This document shows positions 1,602 to 16,564 of a stretch of DNA of 17,779 bases, piece by piece. The stretch's first letter is position 1, and each line of letters begins with the position of its first letter. The notes under the pieces are model-generated. The model was not told the DNA's origin and did not search any database. It saw only the letters and a list, made by a program, of their open reading frames with translations. This DNA is from a phage, in assembly GCA_030820665.1 (NCBI GenBank), contig GCA_030820665.1_4852.1, one strand, 5' to 3'. The position numbers and the translations under genes were made by a program.

Positions 1602-1642
1602 TTGACCAATCTACACCGAGCGCATAGTATAATCTACATCAG
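1602..1642 (+). promoter_or_regulatory. Candidate sigma70-type promoter for the terL-portal insert cassette, carrying the CTACATCA element
   Basis: TTGACC is at 1602-1607. TAGTAT at 1625-1630 (17-nt spacer) overlaps TATAAT at 1628-1633, followed directly by CTACATCA at 1634-1641. AATCTACA occurs twice (1608-1615, 1631-1638). The string GCATAGTAT..CTACATCA is shared with the leftward promoter at 6386-6402. Confidence 0.5.
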
Positions 1643-4098: not shown

Positions 4099-5029
4099 CG
4101 CAAGGCTACCCCAACCGCGCATATCGCAGAGCCTGACAGACCCGCTGGGTGCTGCGACTCGCCTGTCGAAGATGGATAAGGTGATAACGCGCAAATACAA
4201 ACAATTCAGGACTCGTGCTCTTGAGTTGTTTCGCACTATTCCGAACGGTCAGGCTAATGCAGAATCAAGCGGTCTGTATTTCTACGATTTCAGCAGTGCA
4301 CGGGCTGCCACTTTCATGGATGAGTTACAGGCGCTGATTGACGAGATTCTTCTTGAAGGTGATGATTTCGGTCACGGCAGGATGTGGGCCAATGTGTTCA
4401 TTGGTGATGCGTATCAGGCCGGAACACAAAAGGCTAACTCAGAACTGTCAAGCCTGTCTCCGGTTTACGCTGAGCAGAGGCCGATTGCCGCGATACTCTA
4501 CAGTGAGCCTTACCTGAATCGGCTCCAACTGGCTTATACGCAAGGTTACTCAGACTGGCGCGGATTGAGTGATTACTCCCGCCAGCAACTGGCATCTGTC
4601 ATTATGGAAGGCATTGCCCGTGGCGCTAATCCTCGCGATGTTGAAGCTGACATTGTTAAACGTGTTGATGTATCTCACAGCTACGCGAAACAGTTGGCGC
4701 AGACTGAAATAACCGGAACGCTACGTCAGGCTAACAGGCGGGAGGTCATTGAGGCGCGCGAAGAGTTAGGCATTGAGACGGTGATGCTGTGGCAATCGGC
4801 GTTGATGCGCACAACCCGCCAGACGCACGCAGCGCGACACGGACGGTTTTATACACCAGAAGAGATTGACACGTTTTATAGCGAGAATGGCAATAAATAT
4901 AATTGTCACTGTGCACAAACACCAGCATTGCTAATGGATGGGAAACCAGTCATTCTTGAATCCTCGCAGGAAAGGCTTGATAAACAGCGTGAAGCATGGC
5001 AATCAGTCAACAAAAAGCCCTCTAAGTGA
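4079..5029 (+). CDS. Minor head / head morphogenesis protein, Phage_Mu_F (SPP1 gp7) family
   Basis: ORF 3998-5029. The likely start is ATG 4079, a 20-nt overlap with the portal gene; ATG 4172 is the alternative. Hallmarks are '[12 protein letters not shown]', '[12 protein letters not shown]' and 'NCHCAQ', as in MuF-domain proteins. There is no extra C-terminal domain. Confidence 0.8.
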
Positions 5030-5041
5030 GGGCTTGGTTTT
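5015..5041. terminator. Bidirectional intrinsic terminator between convergent MuF-like gene and leftward operon
   Basis: AAGCCCTC (5015-5022) pairs with GAGGGCTT (5028-5035) around a 5-nt loop. It is flanked by an A-run upstream and GGTTTT downstream. The stop codon of the MuF-like gene (5027-5029) sits in the hairpin. Confidence 0.8.
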
Positions 5042-5112: not shown

Positions 5113-5757
5113 TTAATCATCCAGTTTCACGCCTGGAATTTTTCCTGCTGCAATGGCTTCATAAATTAGCTTGGCCTCGTCCTCGCGCCTGTAATCTTGA
5201 GCTGCCATTTCTAACACCGCGCAGATAGACTCAAGTACAGCCTCATGCTTCTTTTCTGCTTCTGTGCGTAGTGGTTTTAGGCTTTCCGGTACGAAGCAGC
5301 ATGACCGACCAGCACCACCTTCATCCCAATAGCAAACAGCCACATCGTTTCCGTCCGTTGTTGTCTTGTGCGCTACAACTTCCATTTCAGTGCCAGCATC
5401 AGGAATCCAGTCATTGCAGTATCCTAACTTTGGATTAAAGAAGAATTCTACTTTTGCACCAACTGGCGGCAGGCCTTCTCCATTCCATGTCTGCTTTTGC
5501 AATGCTGCTAGCGCGGATTCATACAAGTCGCGAGTTATCATACAATAATCCGTGGCTACGCTGACATAGCGACCGGGTATGGGGATTGCCACGGTGTACT
5601 GAAATGGCACATCAAAACCATCGCTATATCCCTTTGGGAAACAAAAAGCAATTGTGATACTGTCACCATTGAAATCACCAACTCGACACCTCTCAGCACC
5701 ATCAGGCCACCCACCACGCTTAGGTAATTCTTGAACTAACAGGTCGATAAGTTTCAT
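5113..5757 (-). CDS. Hypothetical protein (214 aa), last gene of leftward 4-gene operon
   Basis: The start ATG overlaps the upstream stop (ATGA), with GGAGAA as the SD. It contains 'WNGEGLPPVGAKVEF', followed by 'LKPLRTEAEKK' and a C-terminal 'IYEAIAAGKIPGV'. I associate this pattern with uncharacterised accessory proteins of enterobacterial (pro)phages; no function is known to me. Confidence 0.7.
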   Translation of the reverse strand: MKLIDLLVQELPKRGGWPDGAERCRVGDFNGDSITIAFCFPKGYSDGFDVPFQYTVAIPIPGRYVSVATDYCMITRDLYESALAALQKQTWNGEGLPPVGAKVEFFFNPKLGYCNDWIPDAGTEMEVVAHKTTTDGNDVAVCYWDEGGAGRSCCFVPESLKPLRTEAEKKHEAVLESICAVLEMAAQDYRREDEAKLIYEAIAAGKIPGVKLDD

Positions 5758-6068
5758 TTTGTTTCTCCCAATGCTTTATTAACCGCGGCACGTGCATTAT
5801 CCAGAGCGCGACGCTTGCTTGATGTTGTCCAGCATTTTCCGGAGTGGTCGTCGTAGATTTCCAGAAGTTGCTGGAGTGCTGATAACAGGTCAGGAGATGC
5901 CGCTATTAGCCTTGCGTTATGCCATTGCTCGGTTTTATCACCGTTATATGTTGGAGTGAATGCAACCTCGACACCAATATCCGAGATAACATCTGGCGCG
6001 TTATCATCACCAACAACAACTTCCCATTTTCCATGCGTACCTTTAAATTCTTTCACATCCAACCTCAC
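5754..6068 (-). CDS. Hypothetical protein (104 aa)
   Basis: The GTG start at 6066-6068 overlaps the upstream stop (GTGA). It contains 'NARLIAASPDLLSALQQLLE', a motif common in uncharacterised phage proteins. Confidence 0.65.
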   Translation of the reverse strand: MRLDVKEFKGTHGKWEVVVGDDNAPDVISDIGVEVAFTPTYNGDKTEQWHNARLIAASPDLLSALQQLLEIYDDHSGKCWTTSSKRRALDNARAAVNKALGETK

Positions 6069-6208
6069 TTAATATACTCAACAATCTCAACTTCACGCAT
6101 CTGCACCAGGCCAAATGGTGCAACCACCTTACCGCACGGACGGATTTTGATTTGCTCAAGGTTGAACACTCCGCAGCGTCCGTTTTCTTTGAATTTGACC
6201 ATTACCAT
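6065..6208 (-). CDS. Hypothetical small protein (47 aa)
   Basis: Not in the ORF track. Read by hand on the minus strand: MVMVKFKENGRCGVFNLEQIKIRPCGKVVAPFGLVQMREVEIVEYIK. It starts 2 nt after the upstream stop, and its TGA overlaps the downstream GTG start. Confidence 0.5.
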   Translation of the reverse strand: MVMVKFKENGRCGVFNLEQIKIRPCGKVVAPFGLVQMREVEIVEYIK

Positions 6209-6210
6209 AA

Positions 6211-6369
6211 TTAATACCCGTTTTTCTTGGCTAATTGTTGCGCACGTTTCTTCGTGTACCCACAGGCCATCAGGCGCTTGACCTCGTTGCGGCGCCTTGC
6301 GAAATGGTACTCACGAGAATTAAATGCACATTCGTTGCTAAAGTTAACATTACGTGGATTCATCTTCAT
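6211..6369 (-). CDS. Hypothetical small basic protein (52 aa; 50 aa if it starts at 6363)
   Basis: Not in the ORF track. Translation: MKMNPRNVNFSNECAFNSREYHFARRRNEVKRLMACGYTKKRAQQLAKKNGY. GAGGTG lies immediately upstream, which favours the ATG at 6363. It is the first gene after the divergent promoter. Confidence 0.5.
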   Translation of the reverse strand: MKMNPRNVNFSNECAFNSREYHFARRRNEVKRLMACGYTKKRAQQLAKKNGY

Positions 6370-6384
6370 CACCTCATTCATCAC

Positions 6385-6441
6385 TTGATGTAGATACTAT
6401 GCACCAACAACCAATCTACGTCAACACCATTGTGATAGAAT
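6385..6441. promoter_or_regulatory. Divergent promoter region: interlocked leftward and rightward promoters plus an extended -10 for the lysis operon
   Basis: Leftward promoter: TTGACG (rc of 6419-6424), 17 nt, CATAGT (rc 6396-6401) or TAGTAT (rc 6394-6399), then CTACATCA (rc 6386-6393). Rightward promoter: TTGATG 6385-6390, 19 nt, ACCAAT 6410-6415, then CTACGTCAA 6416-6424. A second rightward element is TGaTAGAAT at 6433-6441. Confidence 0.55.
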
Positions 6442-6467
6442 TAATCATTATTTGAACTGGAGGCAGA

Positions 6468-6746
6468 ATGAAACTATCGCAACGAGGCGTGGAGACGTTT
6501 GGAATTACCGATGCCGTGAATATATCGCCTTACATCACTACCGAGACAACGCAGAATCAGTTCGACGCGCTGGCAAGTCTTGCCACCGACATTGGCATTT
6601 ACGCGTTCCGTAAATCAACGCTTCTGAAGAAGCACAACCTCCGCTGCTTCTCATGTGCTGTTGCGCATTTCATCGCGTGGGGCGAGAAGACTGGCGACAA
6701 AGCAAAACGCAAAGCTGAAAAAGAGGTTTACTGGTATGGCTATTAG
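6468..6746 (+). CDS. Degenerate GH24 (P22 gp19/T4 e-type) lysozyme-like ORF lacking the catalytic N-terminal region
   Basis: 92 aa, with GGAGG at 6459-6463. 'TQNQFDALASLATDIGIYAFRKSTLLKKHNLRCFSCAVAHFIAW' parallels the conserved C-terminal half of P22 gp19-type lysozymes ('NQNQYDALCSLIFNIGKSAFAGSTVLRQLNLKNYQAAADAFLLW', recalled from memory). The N-terminal 'EEGxRLxAY..D..G..T' catalytic segment is absent. The ORF overlaps the next gene by 11 nt. Confidence 0.6.
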   Translation: MKLSQRGVETFGITDAVNISPYITTETTQNQFDALASLATDIGIYAFRKSTLLKKHNLRCFSCAVAHFIAWGEKTGDKAKRKAEKEVYWYGY

Positions 6747-7200
6747 TAAAAACATGAAGGCGTTTCTGGATATGCTGGCGTACAGCGAGGGCACTGATAA
6801 CGGGCGGCAGAAAACCAATAATCATGGTTATGATGTGATTGTTGGCGGCTCACTGTTTACCGACTATTCCGACCACCCGCGCAAGCTGATTAGCCTGCCA
6901 AGGCTGGGCATTAAATCCACCGCCGCCGGTCGCTATCAGGTACTGGCTAAGTTTTATGATGCGTACAAAAAGCAATTGCGTTTACCGGACTTCTCCCCCG
7001 CATCGCAGGACGCCATTGCAATGCAGCTAATCCGTGAATGCAAGGCCACCGCTGATATTGAGGCTGGTCGCATTGCTGATGCCATCCATAAATGCCGCTC
7101 CCGCTGGGCCTCATTGCCGGGCGCTGGGTATGGTCAGCATGAGCAGAAGCTGGATAAGCTGATTCAGGTATACAAAGAGGCTGGCGGAGCTGTGGCATGA
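6736..7200 (+). CDS. R: Endolysin, lambda R-type lytic transglycosylase (GH104)
   Basis: ORF 6655-7200 trimmed to ATG 6736 (AAGAGG at 6721-6726). The 154-aa product is near-collinear with lambda R as I recall it: 'KAFLDMLAYSEGTDNGRQKTNNHGYDVIVGGSLFTDYSDHPRKL', 'AAGRYQ' and 'WASLPGAGYGQHE'. The catalytic Glu context 'SEGT' is retained. Confidence 0.92.
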   Translation: MAISKNMKAFLDMLAYSEGTDNGRQKTNNHGYDVIVGGSLFTDYSDHPRKLISLPRLGIKSTAAGRYQVLAKFYDAYKKQLRLPDFSPASQDAIAMQLIRECKATADIEAGRIADAIHKCRSRWASLPGAGYGQHEQKLDKLIQVYKEAGGAVA

Positions 7201-7436
7201 AAAAGCTAAGCAACTGGCTGCTCGCCGCGTGGATTTCATTCTGCTCGCTGTTACAACTATGGCCTGATGCAATGATGCATGTGTGGGTAATGATGCCGGA
7301 TGACCTGAAAGCAGCGCTACCGCTAATCGTGGTCAAAGGTGTGAGTTACTCAATTATGCTTGTCGGCATCATCGGCAAAATGCACGGCATGAGGAAGGAA
7401 AACCGGAGGCTGCGCAATGATGTCGATTCTCGTTAA
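7197..7436 (+). CDS. Putative holin (class II-like: two TM helices, basic C-terminal tail)
   Basis: 79 aa. The ATG overlaps the endolysin stop (ATGA), with GGAG at 7186-7189. TM1 is 'LSNWLLAAWISFCSLLQLW', TM2 is 'LPLIVVKGVSYSIMLVGIIG', and the tail is 'RKENRRLRNDVDSR'. The call rests on position between endolysin and spanins. I recognise no family. Confidence 0.55.
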   Translation: MKKLSNWLLAAWISFCSLLQLWPDAMMHVWVMMPDDLKAALPLIVVKGVSYSIMLVGIIGKMHGMRKENRRLRNDVDSR

Positions 7437-7908
7437 ATACTGGCGACCGCTGGCAATTATTATAATTGTTGCCGCTGGCGCGTTGTGGGTGGCAAATAAA
7501 GTGTCCGGTTATGGCGAGCAACAATATGCCGCCGGATACGCGAAGGCAGTCGCAGAACAGAAGGCCGCAGACGAACAAGAGGAGCAACGACGCAATGCAG
7601 AACTGCAAAAGATTCAGGCCGACGCACAGCAAAGGATTGATGCTGCGCGCAATGATGCTGTTAATGCTGCCGCTAAGTCTGGCAGGTTGCAGCAACAACT
7701 CACCAGTATCCGCAAGCAGCTCGTCGGATATTCCACCGCTGAGTCCATTGGCAACCCAGCCGCAGAAACCGGAGTTTTGCTTGCAGACGTGCTCCGCAAA
7801 TCTGTCGAAAGAAATCAACAGCTGGCAGATTACGCTGACAGGGCGAGAGAGGCAGGATTGACGTGTGAGGCACAGTATAATTCTCTGCGTAATAAAAAAG
7901 CCCCGTGA
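7417..7908 (+). CDS. Rz: i-spanin (Rz-like)
   Basis: GGAGG at 7404-7408. It has an N-terminal TM 'WRPLAIIIIVAAGALWVA', then a long Ala/Gln/Glu-rich coiled-coil periplasmic domain. It follows the endolysin and holin and contains an embedded lipoprotein ORF in the +1 frame. Confidence 0.85.
   Translation: MMSILVKYWRPLAIIIIVAAGALWVANKVSGYGEQQYAAGYAKAVAEQKAADEQEEQRRNAELQKIQADAQQRIDAARNDAVNAAAKSGRLQQQLTSIRKQLVGYSTAESIGNPAAETGVLLADVLRKSVERNQQLADYADRAREAGLTCEAQYNSLRNKKAP
7640..7861 (+). CDS. Rz1: o-spanin (Rz1-like lipoprotein), fully embedded in Rz in another frame
   Basis: It lies within ORF 7466-7861. Starting at ATG 7640 gives the signal peptide MLRAMMLLMLPLSLAGC with lipobox L-A-G-C. The mature part is Ser/Pro-rich ('CSNNSPVSASSSSDIPPLSPLATQPQKP'). 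ATG 7652 is an alternative start. Confidence 0.8.
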   Translation: MLRAMMLLMLPLSLAGCSNNSPVSASSSSDIPPLSPLATQPQKPEFCLQTCSANLSKEINSWQITLTGRERQD

Positions 7909-8585: not shown

Positions 8586-8887
8586 TATTTAATCTCTCCG
8601 TTCAGTTCATTAACAATTAACGTTGCATAGCCAGCAATATCTTTCCAGCTGTCATCATAAGTCGGGTCGCCATTCAGAATGCGCCCAATCTTGTGCTGAA
8701 TCATGTCGAGCGCCTCGCGTTGACTTGGTGTGAGATTGCGCCAGCCATCTACCTTGCGCATCACATCTTTCAACTCCTGCATAATTTCAGCGCCGTCTTT
8801 GAATTTACCGTATCGACTACCGCGTTCGGTGATGAGTCGCTCTGTTGCGTCAGTATGGCGCTTATCGCCCGTGATTTGTGAACTCAT
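8585..8887 (-). CDS. Helical protein resembling the phage DUF6378-type family (function unknown)
   Basis: 100 aa. 'ERGSRYGKFKDGAEIMQEL....LTPSQREALDMIQHKIGRILNGDPTYDDSWKDIAGYATL' follows the pattern ER...YG....nf..ia.......lt...a..m...K..R......h.DSw.DiaGYA. I remember this pattern from a widespread uncharacterised phage family; the family name is from memory. Confidence 0.55.
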   Translation of the reverse strand: MSSQITGDKRHTDATERLITERGSRYGKFKDGAEIMQELKDVMRKVDGWRNLTPSQREALDMIQHKIGRILNGDPTYDDSWKDIAGYATLIVNELNGEIK

Positions 8888-9374
8888 TGTGATGCATTCT
8901 CCTGAATTCTTTTATTTTTGCTTCTGCTTCTCTTATGTCGGAAAAGTAACCAACTGTGAATCTTTTGCCATTTACTCCAACTCTTGCATGCCACTTGTTG
9001 TGCGATGAACTCCAGTTAACCCCCTTGATACCGCTAGTGTTGTTTTTGTTCATTGCTTTGTTGTGGCTATTCTCAAATTTGCTGGCCTCCCTTAAATTGC
9101 ACGCCCTGTTGTCATTGCGAATGCCATTAATGTGGTCAATCATTTCACTTGCTGGCGCGCCATGAATGCATATCCATGCCAATCTGTGAGCAAGAAAAGC
9201 CCTACCGCAAAGAATTATTTGCACATATCCATCTGGCTTTAAGTAGCCAGCCACACTCCCTTTTTCTGCAATCCTATTCCTTGTCTTTAGCCATTTAAAT
9301 TCCCCAGTTAGTGGATTGTAGTAAAGGTAACTCAATATAAACTCCCTACTCGGCTCATCTCTCCTATGCCTCAT
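8862..9374 (-). CDS. HNH homing endonuclease with C-terminal AP2 DNA-binding domain
   Basis: 170 aa. The HNH_3-type core is 'AHRLAWICIHG....IDHINGIRNDNRACNLREA'. The AP2 module is 'SGIKGVNWSSSHNKWHARVGVNGKRFTVGYFSDIREAEAKIKEFRRMHHNEF'. It overlaps the downstream gene by 26 nt and is visibly more A/T-rich than its neighbours. Confidence 0.9.
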   Translation of the reverse strand: MRHRRDEPSREFILSYLYYNPLTGEFKWLKTRNRIAEKGSVAGYLKPDGYVQIILCGRAFLAHRLAWICIHGAPASEMIDHINGIRNDNRACNLREASKFENSHNKAMNKNNTSGIKGVNWSSSHNKWHARVGVNGKRFTVGYFSDIREAEAKIKEFRRMHHNEFTNHGR

Positions 9375-9577: not shown

Positions 9578-9601
9578 ATTTACTACTCCTTCTCGAAAAA
9601 C

Positions 9602-9654
9602 ATCTTGACGTTTCTACATCATTTAGTCAATGCTTGTTGACGTAGATTGTACCA
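9602..9654. promoter_or_regulatory. Divergent regulatory region with paired CTACRTCA / TTGAYGTAG elements
   Basis: Leftward: extended -10 TGgTACAAT (rc 9646-9654), followed by CTACGTCAA (rc 9637-9645). A second leftward candidate is TTGACT (rc 9625-9630), 17 nt, CAAGAT (rc 9602-9607). Rightward: TTGACG at 9605-9610 and 9637-9642 and TTCTACATCA at 9612-9621, but I could find no convincing rightward -10. Confidence 0.45.
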
Positions 9655-9676
9655 CAACGGAAAAGGTGATGTGGAA

Positions 9677-9934: not shown

Positions 9935-10129
9935 ATGGCGCATGACGAACTGTACGAAGAATCGTTAATCCAGAGGTTGAATGAAGTTGAGCGCACTCGC
10001 GAATGGCTGGAGTGCGAGTTACGAGAAGTGCGCAACCGCCTGCAACGCAAGCGCAGTCAGCAAAGAGATGTCATCGACTGGTCTGGGGGTACACCTAAAT
10101 TTAACAATCTGGGAGAATGGTTGAAATGA
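9935..10129 (+). CDS. Hypothetical coiled-coil protein (64 aa)
   Basis: GGGAGA lies upstream of ATG 9935. 'LNEVERTREWLECELREVRNRLQRKRSQQRD' looks like coiled coil. The stop overlaps the HNH start (ATGA). Confidence 0.55.
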   Translation: MAHDELYEESLIQRLNEVERTREWLECELREVRNRLQRKRSQQRDVIDWSGGTPKFNNLGEWLK

Positions 10130-10656
10130 GCAACATTAGTAAGGAAAGCATTTTAAAGTTCCTCCAGCATGATGAAAATACAGGAAACTTTCTATGGATT
10201 GATAATTTCTCAAGAAAATCAAAGAAAGGGAAGGTGGCTGGAGGTATTACATCGCATGGGTATTGGAGAATTCAACTCCCCATCGGGAGGTTTTACGCAC
10301 ACAGAATGGCGTGGATTGTTTGCAATGGAGATATACCAAACGGATATGAGATTGATCACATAAATGGGAACAAGAAAGATAATCGCATCAGCAACCTAAG
10401 ATTGGTCACAAGAGGTCAAAATGTTATGAATGTAGGCGTGAAAAACAATAATACAAGCGGAGTTAAGGATGTTGTTTGGGACTCTTCGCGAGAAAGGTGG
10501 AGGGTTCAAATTACAGCCAATGGCAAGCATTATTATGGAGGTAGATTCTCGTCAATAACACAAGCAAAAGAGGAGAGGAACAGGCTCATAAAGATGGTTC
10601 ACGGGAAATTTTTGAATACAAAAGGTGAGCAATATGACACTACTAATGAACGATGA
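10126..10656 (+). CDS. HNH homing endonuclease with C-terminal AP2 DNA-binding domain
   Basis: ORF 10117-10656. ATG 10126 is preferred (GGGAGA at 10111-10116, 9-nt spacing). Motifs are 'AHRMAWIVCNG....IDHINGNKKDNRISNLRLV' and 'SGVKDVVWDSSRERWRVQITANGKHYYGGRFSSITQA'. It is a diverged paralogue of 8862-9374(-) and is A/T-rich; a hand count of one 60-nt line gives about 42% GC, against about 57% for a line in the decoration-like gene (14101-14160). Confidence 0.9.
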   Translation: MSNISKESILKFLQHDENTGNFLWIDNFSRKSKKGKVAGGITSHGYWRIQLPIGRFYAHRMAWIVCNGDIPNGYEIDHINGNKKDNRISNLRLVTRGQNVMNVGVKNNNTSGVKDVVWDSSRERWRVQITANGKHYYGGRFSSITQAKEERNRLIKMVHGKFLNTKGEQYDTTNER

Positions 10657-16478: not shown

Positions 16479-16501
16479 AAAGTCACTCCTAATTTGGTTT
16501 T

Positions 16502-16534
16502 ATATTACCACGAGTGTAACTAGTGTGCTACAAT
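16502..16534. promoter_or_regulatory. Divergent extended -10 promoter candidates
   Basis: Rightward: TTACCA 16505-16510, 18 nt, TGcTACAAT 16526-16534. Leftward, for the HNH gene: TGgTAATAT (rc 16502-16510). Confidence 0.45.
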
Positions 16535-16564
16535 TAACCAGCATTAACTCATGAGGATATTTAA

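Follow-up and report, generated by a model that had tools for sequence, protein, structure and literature searches.

A quasi-palindrome upstream of the lysis genes of a Skate-like phage is best read as two copies of a family-wide promoter-associated motif

The quasi-palindrome at positions 6385-6424 of a 17,779-nt stretch of phage DNA, which was analyzed as a whole and is referred to as the window below, is best read as two independent copies of one asymmetric motif of 11-12 bp with the consensus WWTCTACRYCA(A). Copies of this motif form a previously undescribed, family-wide set of promoter-associated sites, of which the 6385-6424 locus is an ordinary member. Judged from sequence comparisons, we favor, with a probability of roughly 0.55, an operator model in which a trans-acting, sequence-specific factor would bind each copy independently and shut the promoters that carry the motif, the lead candidate being a winged-helix protein. 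The window derives from a Skate-like siphophage of Salmonella or E. coli, and its nearest record is Salmonella phage vB_SenS_ST1UNAM, with 97% identity across the matched 3-kb stretch. Skate-like phages are often met in the biocontrol and typing of Salmonella and E. coli, and they include the BASEL phages Bas77-81 and the genome-reduction chassis seszw; they are described as lytic in the literature, and the phages analyzed here lack an integrase. In the literature on Skatevirus, swi2, KlebP_265, BASEL, and seszw, we found no description of the transcriptional programme of Skate-like phages, no promoter or repeat analysis, and no description of the motif. All promoters and start sites given below are consensus predictions.

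The site lies in an 84-bp gap that has a leftward small-gene set on one side and the rightward lysis cassette on the other (Table 1). A Pfam search with the four leftward accessory proteins gave no matches, and three of the four genes have PHROG matches, all of them to families of unknown function. Across the window and 34 relatives, 13 different, unrelated gene modules adjoin the left arm on its left side. In the lysis cassette, the match of the 92-aa lysozyme-like protein is confined to positions 55-114 of the 125-position Pfam Phage_lysozyme profile. The N-terminal catalytic part seems to be missing from this protein, and it is probably the next gene that encodes the working muralytic enzyme. 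Rfam and tRNA searches of the window gave no Rfam matches and no tRNAs.

Table 1. Coordinates of promoters, motif copies, and genes in the window.
Feature	Position	Strand	Details
Second motif pair	1602-1642	+	Rightward promoter: TTGACC, AATCTACACCG (-29 to -19), TAGTAT, AATCTACATCA (-6 to +5)
Bidirectional terminator	5015-5035		Ends the accessory genes 6363-5113
Leftward accessory operon	5113-6363	-	Four genes (50, 47, 104, and 214 aa); mosaic module
Distal motif copy (left arm)	6385-6396	-	Reads TATCTACATCAA on the minus strand; -7 to +4 of P_L
Leftward promoter P_L	6396-6424	-	Sigma70-type; -35 TTGACG 6424-6419, 17-nt spacer, -10 CATAGT 6401-6396; consensus scan
Proximal motif copy (right arm)	6413-6424	+	AATCTACGTCAA; nearly invariant across relatives
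Extended -10 of the lysis cassette	6433-6441	+	TGATAGAAT; TGnTAnAAT in 34/34 relatives
Lysis cassette	6468-7908	+	Pfam and PHROG matches; annotation of a close relative
Lysozyme-like 92-aa protein	6468-6746	+	First lysis gene
Endolysin	6736-7200	+	PHROG 90
Holin	7197-7436	+	
Rz-like spanin	7417-7908	+	
Third motif pair	9605-9654	.	In divergent region 9578-9676
Candidate binder, 162 aa	10860-11348	+	PHROG 1687; two tandem winged-helix domains

The first-pass annotation had described two arms, TTGATGTAGAT (6385-6395) and ATCTACGTCAA (6414-6424), and these are indeed inverted repeats with one mismatch, a T/C difference at arm position 5, and an 18-bp gap. As a bare inverted repeat, the site is no rarer than chance. 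With arms of 11 nt, at most one mismatch, and a spacer of at most 30, the window contains six comparable inverted repeats, three of which are accounted for by terminators, whereas 300 first-order Markov simulations of the window gave 5.73 +/- 3.25, so that the dyad is not statistically unusual. The centers of the arms lie 29 bp apart, a spacing that does not suit a simple dimer. An RNA hairpin formed by the arms is not expected because the arms are not both transcribed in either predicted direction; the predicted lysis transcript includes neither arm, and the leftward transcript includes only the left one.

The single arm, on the other hand, is strongly enriched. WWTCTACRYCA occurs five times in the window (0.13 expected), the 8-mer core TCTACRYC seven times (1.25 expected), and exact copies of TTGAYGTAGAT three times, namely in both arms and at 9637-9647, with an estimated chance expectation of about 0.02. 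As the half-site is strongly enriched while the inverted repeat is at chance level, the half-site and not the dyad is the real signal. Six of the seven cores form three pairs in three promoter regions (1608/1631, 6386/6413, and 9611/9638). The complete ST1UNAM genome contains 20 core matches, with about 6 expected, and 16 of these are intergenic in a genome with 8.7% intergenic DNA; in Klebsiella phage YX3973, 12 of 14 core matches are intergenic. An unbiased ranking of 10-mers placed the motif first to joint second in ST1UNAM, Segz_1, YX3973, and the SB28-like CHRF_10023.1, the rank in the last holding after discounting a poly-G run that is probably an assembly artefact. Genome-wide, the consensus extends to t[c/g]AATCTACRTCAa, and matches inside coding regions lack these flanks. 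The motif family ranges over Skate-, Segzy-, and Rouf-like siphophages, and no copies were found in the temperate enterobacterial phages L038 and L040. When all viral contigs were scanned for paired motifs, the matches listed were mostly in unrelated contigs and probably reflect chance and coding repeats.

In the window and four genomes taken together, 57 of 66 copies (86%) lie within -40 to +12 of a predicted sigma70-type promoter, as compared to 9.6% of random positions, and about ten promoters per genome carry the motif. The copies occupy discrete placements. Those in reverse orientation lie at -34 to -24, where the motif provides the -35 element TTGACG, or at -17 to -7, where it provides the -10 element TAGATT, and those in forward orientation lie at -30 to -20, in the spacer adjoining the -35. 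Further copies span the start site, at -7 to +6 in forward or at -3 to +8 in reverse orientation, and forward copies are also found at -35 to -25 of extended -10 promoters. At the third pair of the window, TTGACG (9605-9610) is followed in the rightward direction by TTTCTACATCA (9611-9621) in the spacer, and the reverse-strand copy AATCTACGTCA (9638-9648) covers the start site of a leftward extended -10 promoter, TGGTACAAT (9646-9654). At the lysis locus, the reverse complement of the proximal copy provides the -35 of P_L (TTGACG), and the same copy lies at -35 to -25 of the lysis promoter. The proximal copy shares this geometry with a copy at one further locus in each of the full genomes examined (L035 20078, L036 44524, and L037 13578). 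The early promoter reads TTGACGTAGA-N7-TGATGTAGATT in both Salmonella and Klebsiella phages, with its -35 and its -10 each embedded in motif copies.

Immediately upstream of the early promoter in L035 (OQ469755), outside the window, there is an AT-rich, repeat-bearing stretch (43907-44263) with a repeated CCCCACG, of which five copies were counted by eye; this stretch is likely a replication origin with iterons. Abutting pairs of motif copies (ATCTACATCAATCTACATCG) occur inside the leftward replication operon (L035 37604-37623, L037 32013-32033, and L039 27003-27023). No promoter is predicted near these copies in the three genomes, and their placement resembles that of a roadblock or 'stoperator'.

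For the leftward direction, the first-pass annotation had read TTGACG, 17 nt, and CATAGT, and this reading was correct, as the consensus scan picked up P_L with a score of 9/12 and reports no other promoter-like site in this gap. P_L has a -35 near TTGACA, a spacer within the range of 16-18 nt, a -10 with A in position 2 and T in position 6, and a downstream gene on the same strand, and about 25 nt separate its predicted start near 6389 from the ATG at 6363. Across relatives, the hexamers are kept and the spacer sequence varies. P_L would drive the accessory genes 6363-5113. A second, interlocked promoter had been read rightward as TTGATG, 19 nt, and ACCAAT. This string is present, but it is not called by the scan, weak, and unconserved: the hexamer ACCAAT lacks the A at -10 position 2, the preceding spacer has 19 nt instead of the required 16-18, most relatives have CTCAAT in place of this hexamer, and L007, L009, and YX3973 either lack the TTGATG arm or carry it flipped. 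The separate extended -10 that had been assigned to the lysis genes is present and conserved, and its position is fixed at 26 nt before the ATG in all 34 relatives. This conserved rightward promoter predicts a start near 6448, and not near 6422 as had been proposed, followed by the Shine-Dalgarno sequence GGAGG (6457-6461) and the ATG at 6468. No -35 match at 16-18 nt from the extended -10 was recognisable by eye. P_L and the lysis promoter point away from each other, their predicted starts are about 59 bp apart, and from this distance and the standard footprints of RNA polymerase we infer that polymerase is unable to occupy both promoters together. In this sense, the earlier idea of a mutual occlusion is plausible from geometry for P_L and the lysis extended -10, but a second interlocked rightward promoter is not supported.

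In the 34 relatives, there is hardly any variation from the left arm onward to the lysis ATG, save for the stretch between the copies and a few bases after the right copy. The phylogenetic footprint shows variable DNA between two motif copies that, like the two hexamers, hardly change. The inverted arrangement with both arms intact and an 18-bp spacer is found in 30 of the 34 relatives. The copies in L007, L009, and YX3973 form direct repeats instead, with a gap of 17 or 24-25 bp, and these phages keep the leftward promoter with a different -10, which is drawn from the flipped copy. In the 9600 region, most relatives have the start-proximal copy in reverse orientation, and L015 has it in forward orientation. 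Motif pairs at other promoters show direct, convergent, or divergent arrangements and are spaced 10-46 bp apart. The dyad symmetry of a palindromic operator is therefore kept neither at orthologous sites nor at other pairs. The 1602 promoter and its motif pair travel with a small-gene module (1602-1868) after the large terminase gene; a comparison of L005, L007, L009, L013, L016, L017, L020, and L031-L033 showed that this module is present in some relatives and that a terminator and leftward genes are found in its place elsewhere.

Phage seszw (L003 and L042) provides a natural deletion of the element. Here, 17 bp between CTA microhomologies in the lysis intergenic region are deleted, which fuses the arms to GTAGATACTA directly joined to TACGTCAA, with loss of the P_L spacer and retention of the extended -10. 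Both seszw, which is wild-type-like, and its derivatives are viable (PMC9825161). As seszw is viable with the collapsed element, the whole arrangement is dispensable, and the comparisons point to two copies near the P_L core, and not the dyad, as the conserved feature.

In the operator model that we favor, the factor would bind each motif copy on its own and in either orientation, and the bound factor would exclude RNA polymerase because the copies overlap the -35, the spacer, the -10, or the start site. Binding would shut P_L jointly with about ten further promoters and would have a modulating effect on the neighboring lysis promoter, where the copy at -35 to -25 could either hinder or help polymerase. 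Separately, polymerase at P_L or at the lysis promoter would exclude polymerase at the other. The tandem winged-helix protein could recognise the asymmetric motif in monomeric form and, with a motif pair preceding its own operon, would be autoregulated. This reading is the most economical one because the copies are kept without regard to orientation, overlap the DNA used by polymerase, and have non-hexamer bases that are conserved like the hexamers. Orientation flips at orthologous promoters at which the copy is kept fit a protein site and not an oriented polymerase element. A counter-point is that the reverse complement of the motif, TTGACG fused to TAGATT, is itself a combination of a -35-like and a -10-like sequence, and part of the motif conservation may come from direct use by sigma70.

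If such direct use were the full explanation, the motif would be intrinsic to the promoters and no separate factor would be needed: TTGAYG-TAGATT would serve the sigma70 polymerase as -35, as -10, or as a start-proximal pause or decoy, and would have spread by duplicated promoter cassettes on mobile gene modules. Many copies do supply a -35 (TTGACG, -34 to -24) or a -10 (TAGATT, -17 to -7), the early promoter is conserved from Salmonella to Klebsiella phages, and motif-bearing promoters move with gene modules. We nevertheless consider this explanation unlikely, although possible, as about half of the copies are forward (-30 to -20 or -7 to +6) and supply no sigma70 element, yet are conserved, as non-hexamer bases are as invariant as the hexamers, and as orientation flips retain the copy but switch the strand that carries the hexamers. 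It is quite unlikely that the sites form a 'promoter-mimic' operator regulon, in which the monomeric tandem winged-helix protein would compete with sigma70 at the fused -35/-10 sites (TTGACG-TAGATT), switch off about ten early/middle promoters, and act in a MotA-box-like manner at the lysis promoter for late expression, so that 6385-6424 would couple repression of the accessory operon to activation of lysis. Binding by a conserved Enterobacteriaceae host transcription factor or nucleoid protein that times the phage promoters would agree with a motif that is unchanged across Salmonella, E. coli, and Klebsiella phages while the winged-helix candidate is down to 37% identity, with the viability of phages from which the winged-helix gene is deleted, and with hosts that are all Enterobacteriaceae. 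This is improbable, however, as the motif distribution tracks one phage lineage and the temperate enterobacterial phages L038 and L040 have no copies; we also know of no E. coli regulator consensus (FNR, MetJ, BaeR, OmpR, sigmaE, and others) that fits the motif, a lead that speaks against a host factor.

We regard as very improbable the dedicated 40-bp dyad with two interlocked divergent promoters that had been proposed as a palindromic switch read by a dimer or by polymerase. Its inverted repeat and its leftward promoter are real, the inverted arrangement is kept in most relatives, and a mutual exclusion of divergent polymerases is geometrically plausible, but the rightward -10 is deficient in its second position, its spacing, and its conservation (CTCAAT), and the invariant rightward promoter is the extended -10. 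Moreover, L007, L009, and YX3973 carry direct repeats in place of the dyad, the other motif pairs of the same genomes do not form dyads, the arm centers are widely spaced, and seszw is viable without the dyad. A compact switch between the accessory operon and lysis is thus not borne out, given an unconserved dyad, a motif present at about ten promoters per genome, and a viable seszw; nothing in the analysis points to a dedicated palindromic switch that includes a second, interlocked promoter in the rightward direction, and the palindrome should not be treated as special. It is also hard to believe that the motif is mainly a short homology patch for recombinational exchange at module boundaries, with regulation being secondary. 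Conservation does start exactly at the left arm, which the 13 unrelated left modules of the window and the 34 relatives abut, and the 1602 promoter pair moves with its own module. However, 11-12 bp are very short for homologous exchange, the tight placement with respect to the -35, the -10, and the start site would be left unaccounted for, and copies are also present at non-mosaic promoters, the early promoter and that of the primase among them.

Within the operator model, the 162-aa winged-helix protein is the lead candidate for the binding factor. Its predicted structure (pLDDT 83.6) consists of two tandem winged-helix domains and a C-terminal helix, each of the two domains matches ArsR-, MarR-, or PadR-type DNA-binding domains, and the second recognition helix has the invariant residues K103, R105, and R107. 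A protein built in this way could recognise an asymmetric site in monomeric form. The third motif pair precedes the operon that contains the gene. Among 1.84 billion proteins, the family has 8 representatives, all of them within this phage group. A point against the candidate is its identity of only 37-48% across the motif-sharing phage groups. The motif and the protein were found together in 4 of 4 natural genomes, one of which lacks the ParB-like gene, but many further proteins are conserved in these related phages as well, and the co-occurrence therefore has little power. In seszw_160L, the smallest viable genome-reduced seszw mutant, the winged-helix gene is deleted and all motif copies are kept (17 cores). 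As this deletion mutant is viable, the winged-helix protein would, if it is the binder, be a dispensable modulator or repressor and not an essential activator of lysis. Other small conserved phage proteins or host factors are possible binders. A ParB/KorB-like HTH protein was also considered and is largely excluded: CHRF_10023.1 retains only a 33-aa remnant of it and yet has 10 exact motif copies, two otherwise dissimilar phages with ParB-like homologs have no motif copies, and a palindrome would be expected for a ParB/KorB operator, whereas the motif is asymmetric.

Dispersed asymmetric operators have precedents in other phages, and those of P1 C1 and L5 gp71 are the nearest analogies, followed by the phi29 p4 sites and the RK2 KorB regulon. 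The set described here stands apart from all of these in the combination of lytic siphophage hosts of the motif, a site of 11-12 bp, a flexible orientation, and a binder for which there is so far a candidate. The P1 C1 operators are asymmetric 17-bp sites that are scattered over many promoters, occur singly or in pairs, and overlap core promoter elements. P1 is temperate, C1 maintains lysogeny, and inverted 'bivalent' operator pairs look palindromic. The sites described here are similar in being asymmetric, in being present at many promoters as single or paired copies with some inverted pairs, and in overlapping core elements, but they belong to lytic phages, have only 11-12 bp, and have a tandem winged-helix protein unrelated to C1 as the candidate binder. 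In mycobacteriophage L5, gp71 is a monomeric helix-turn-helix repressor, and its stoperators are fixed in orientation to transcription and act on elongation. Like the gp71 sites, the motif is short and asymmetric, is present some 10-20 times in each genome, overlaps a sequence resembling a -35, and lies mostly in short intergenic regions, and the abutting copies at L035 37604-37623 in the replication operon are reminiscent of stoperators. Unlike stoperators, the motif varies in orientation and has 86% of its copies in core promoters, and the phages are lytic. Two features of a dispersed asymmetric operator regulon of the P1 C1/L5 gp71 type, a multi-copy intergenic site and overlap with core promoters, are present.

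Other systems resemble the lysis locus itself or the reuse of one operator. The phi29 p4 sites at A2c/A2b-A3 are inverted repeats that are bound by dimers, with p6-assisted looping. As in this Bacillus phage, the region studied here is a compact divergent early/late region with several regulator sites and a late promoter without -35, at which one protein could repress one direction and favor the other. In contrast to phi29, symmetry is not conserved, and one motif is used genome-wide. The proximal copy also resembles a MotA box of T4 middle promoters, which depend on MotA and AsiA sigma appropriation, as it replaces the -35 of an extended -10 promoter. A forward copy at -35 to -25 of TGnTAnAAT is found at the lysis promoter and at one other locus per genome (the sites in L035, L036, and L037 named above), with a fixed orientation and its 3' end 11-12 bp from the -10 hexamer. 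Most copies, however, are not at -30 of -35-less promoters, Pfam and PHROG searches detected no MotA/AsiA homologs among the 28 phage proteins scanned, and the lysis genes of seszw are functional with a degenerate copy and also without the winged-helix gene. The RK2 KorB (ParB family) operators are 13-bp palindromes. The KorB regulon is similar in that one operator is reused at many promoters and in that the phages encode a ParB/KorB-like HTH protein, but the motif is asymmetric and persists with 10 copies in a phage that lacks an intact ParB-like gene.

As one short motif is present at nearly all predicted promoters, it provides an immediate promoter map of Skate-like phages, and it predicts a co-regulated set of about ten promoters. 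The motif also gives a handle for a regulator search, for example by DNA-affinity capture with AATCTACRTCAA. For phage engineering, it is relevant that indels near module boundaries will add or remove motif sites, and that the lysis promoter is separable from the leftward promoter, as in the natural seszw deletion.

The window contains six extended -10 sites, with 3.0 expected, and as 17 of 200 shuffles reached six, this class is not more numerous than chance. Only the placement is informative, since five of the six sit upstream of gene clusters. One site, TGCTATAAT (2641-2649), abuts a terminator-like hairpin (CCCATC...GATGGG) with a T-run; in this region (2641-2678), which precedes the portal gene at 2686, the upstream small-gene module would be terminated and transcription would be restarted inside the terminator. 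Another, TGCTACAAT (16526-16534), reads rightward in the divergent region 16479-16564. As this region has no motif copy, not all promoters of the phage use the motif. In the counterpart of this region in L035 (15902-15987), the opposite strand reads TGGTAATAT leftward, at a place that corresponds to about 16500-16515 in the window. Finally, the window carries a paralogous pair of HNH-AP2 homing endonuclease genes (10117-10656 and 8862-9374), the former of which, compared with ST1UNAM, has been inserted between the 9935-10129 gene and the Lar gene.
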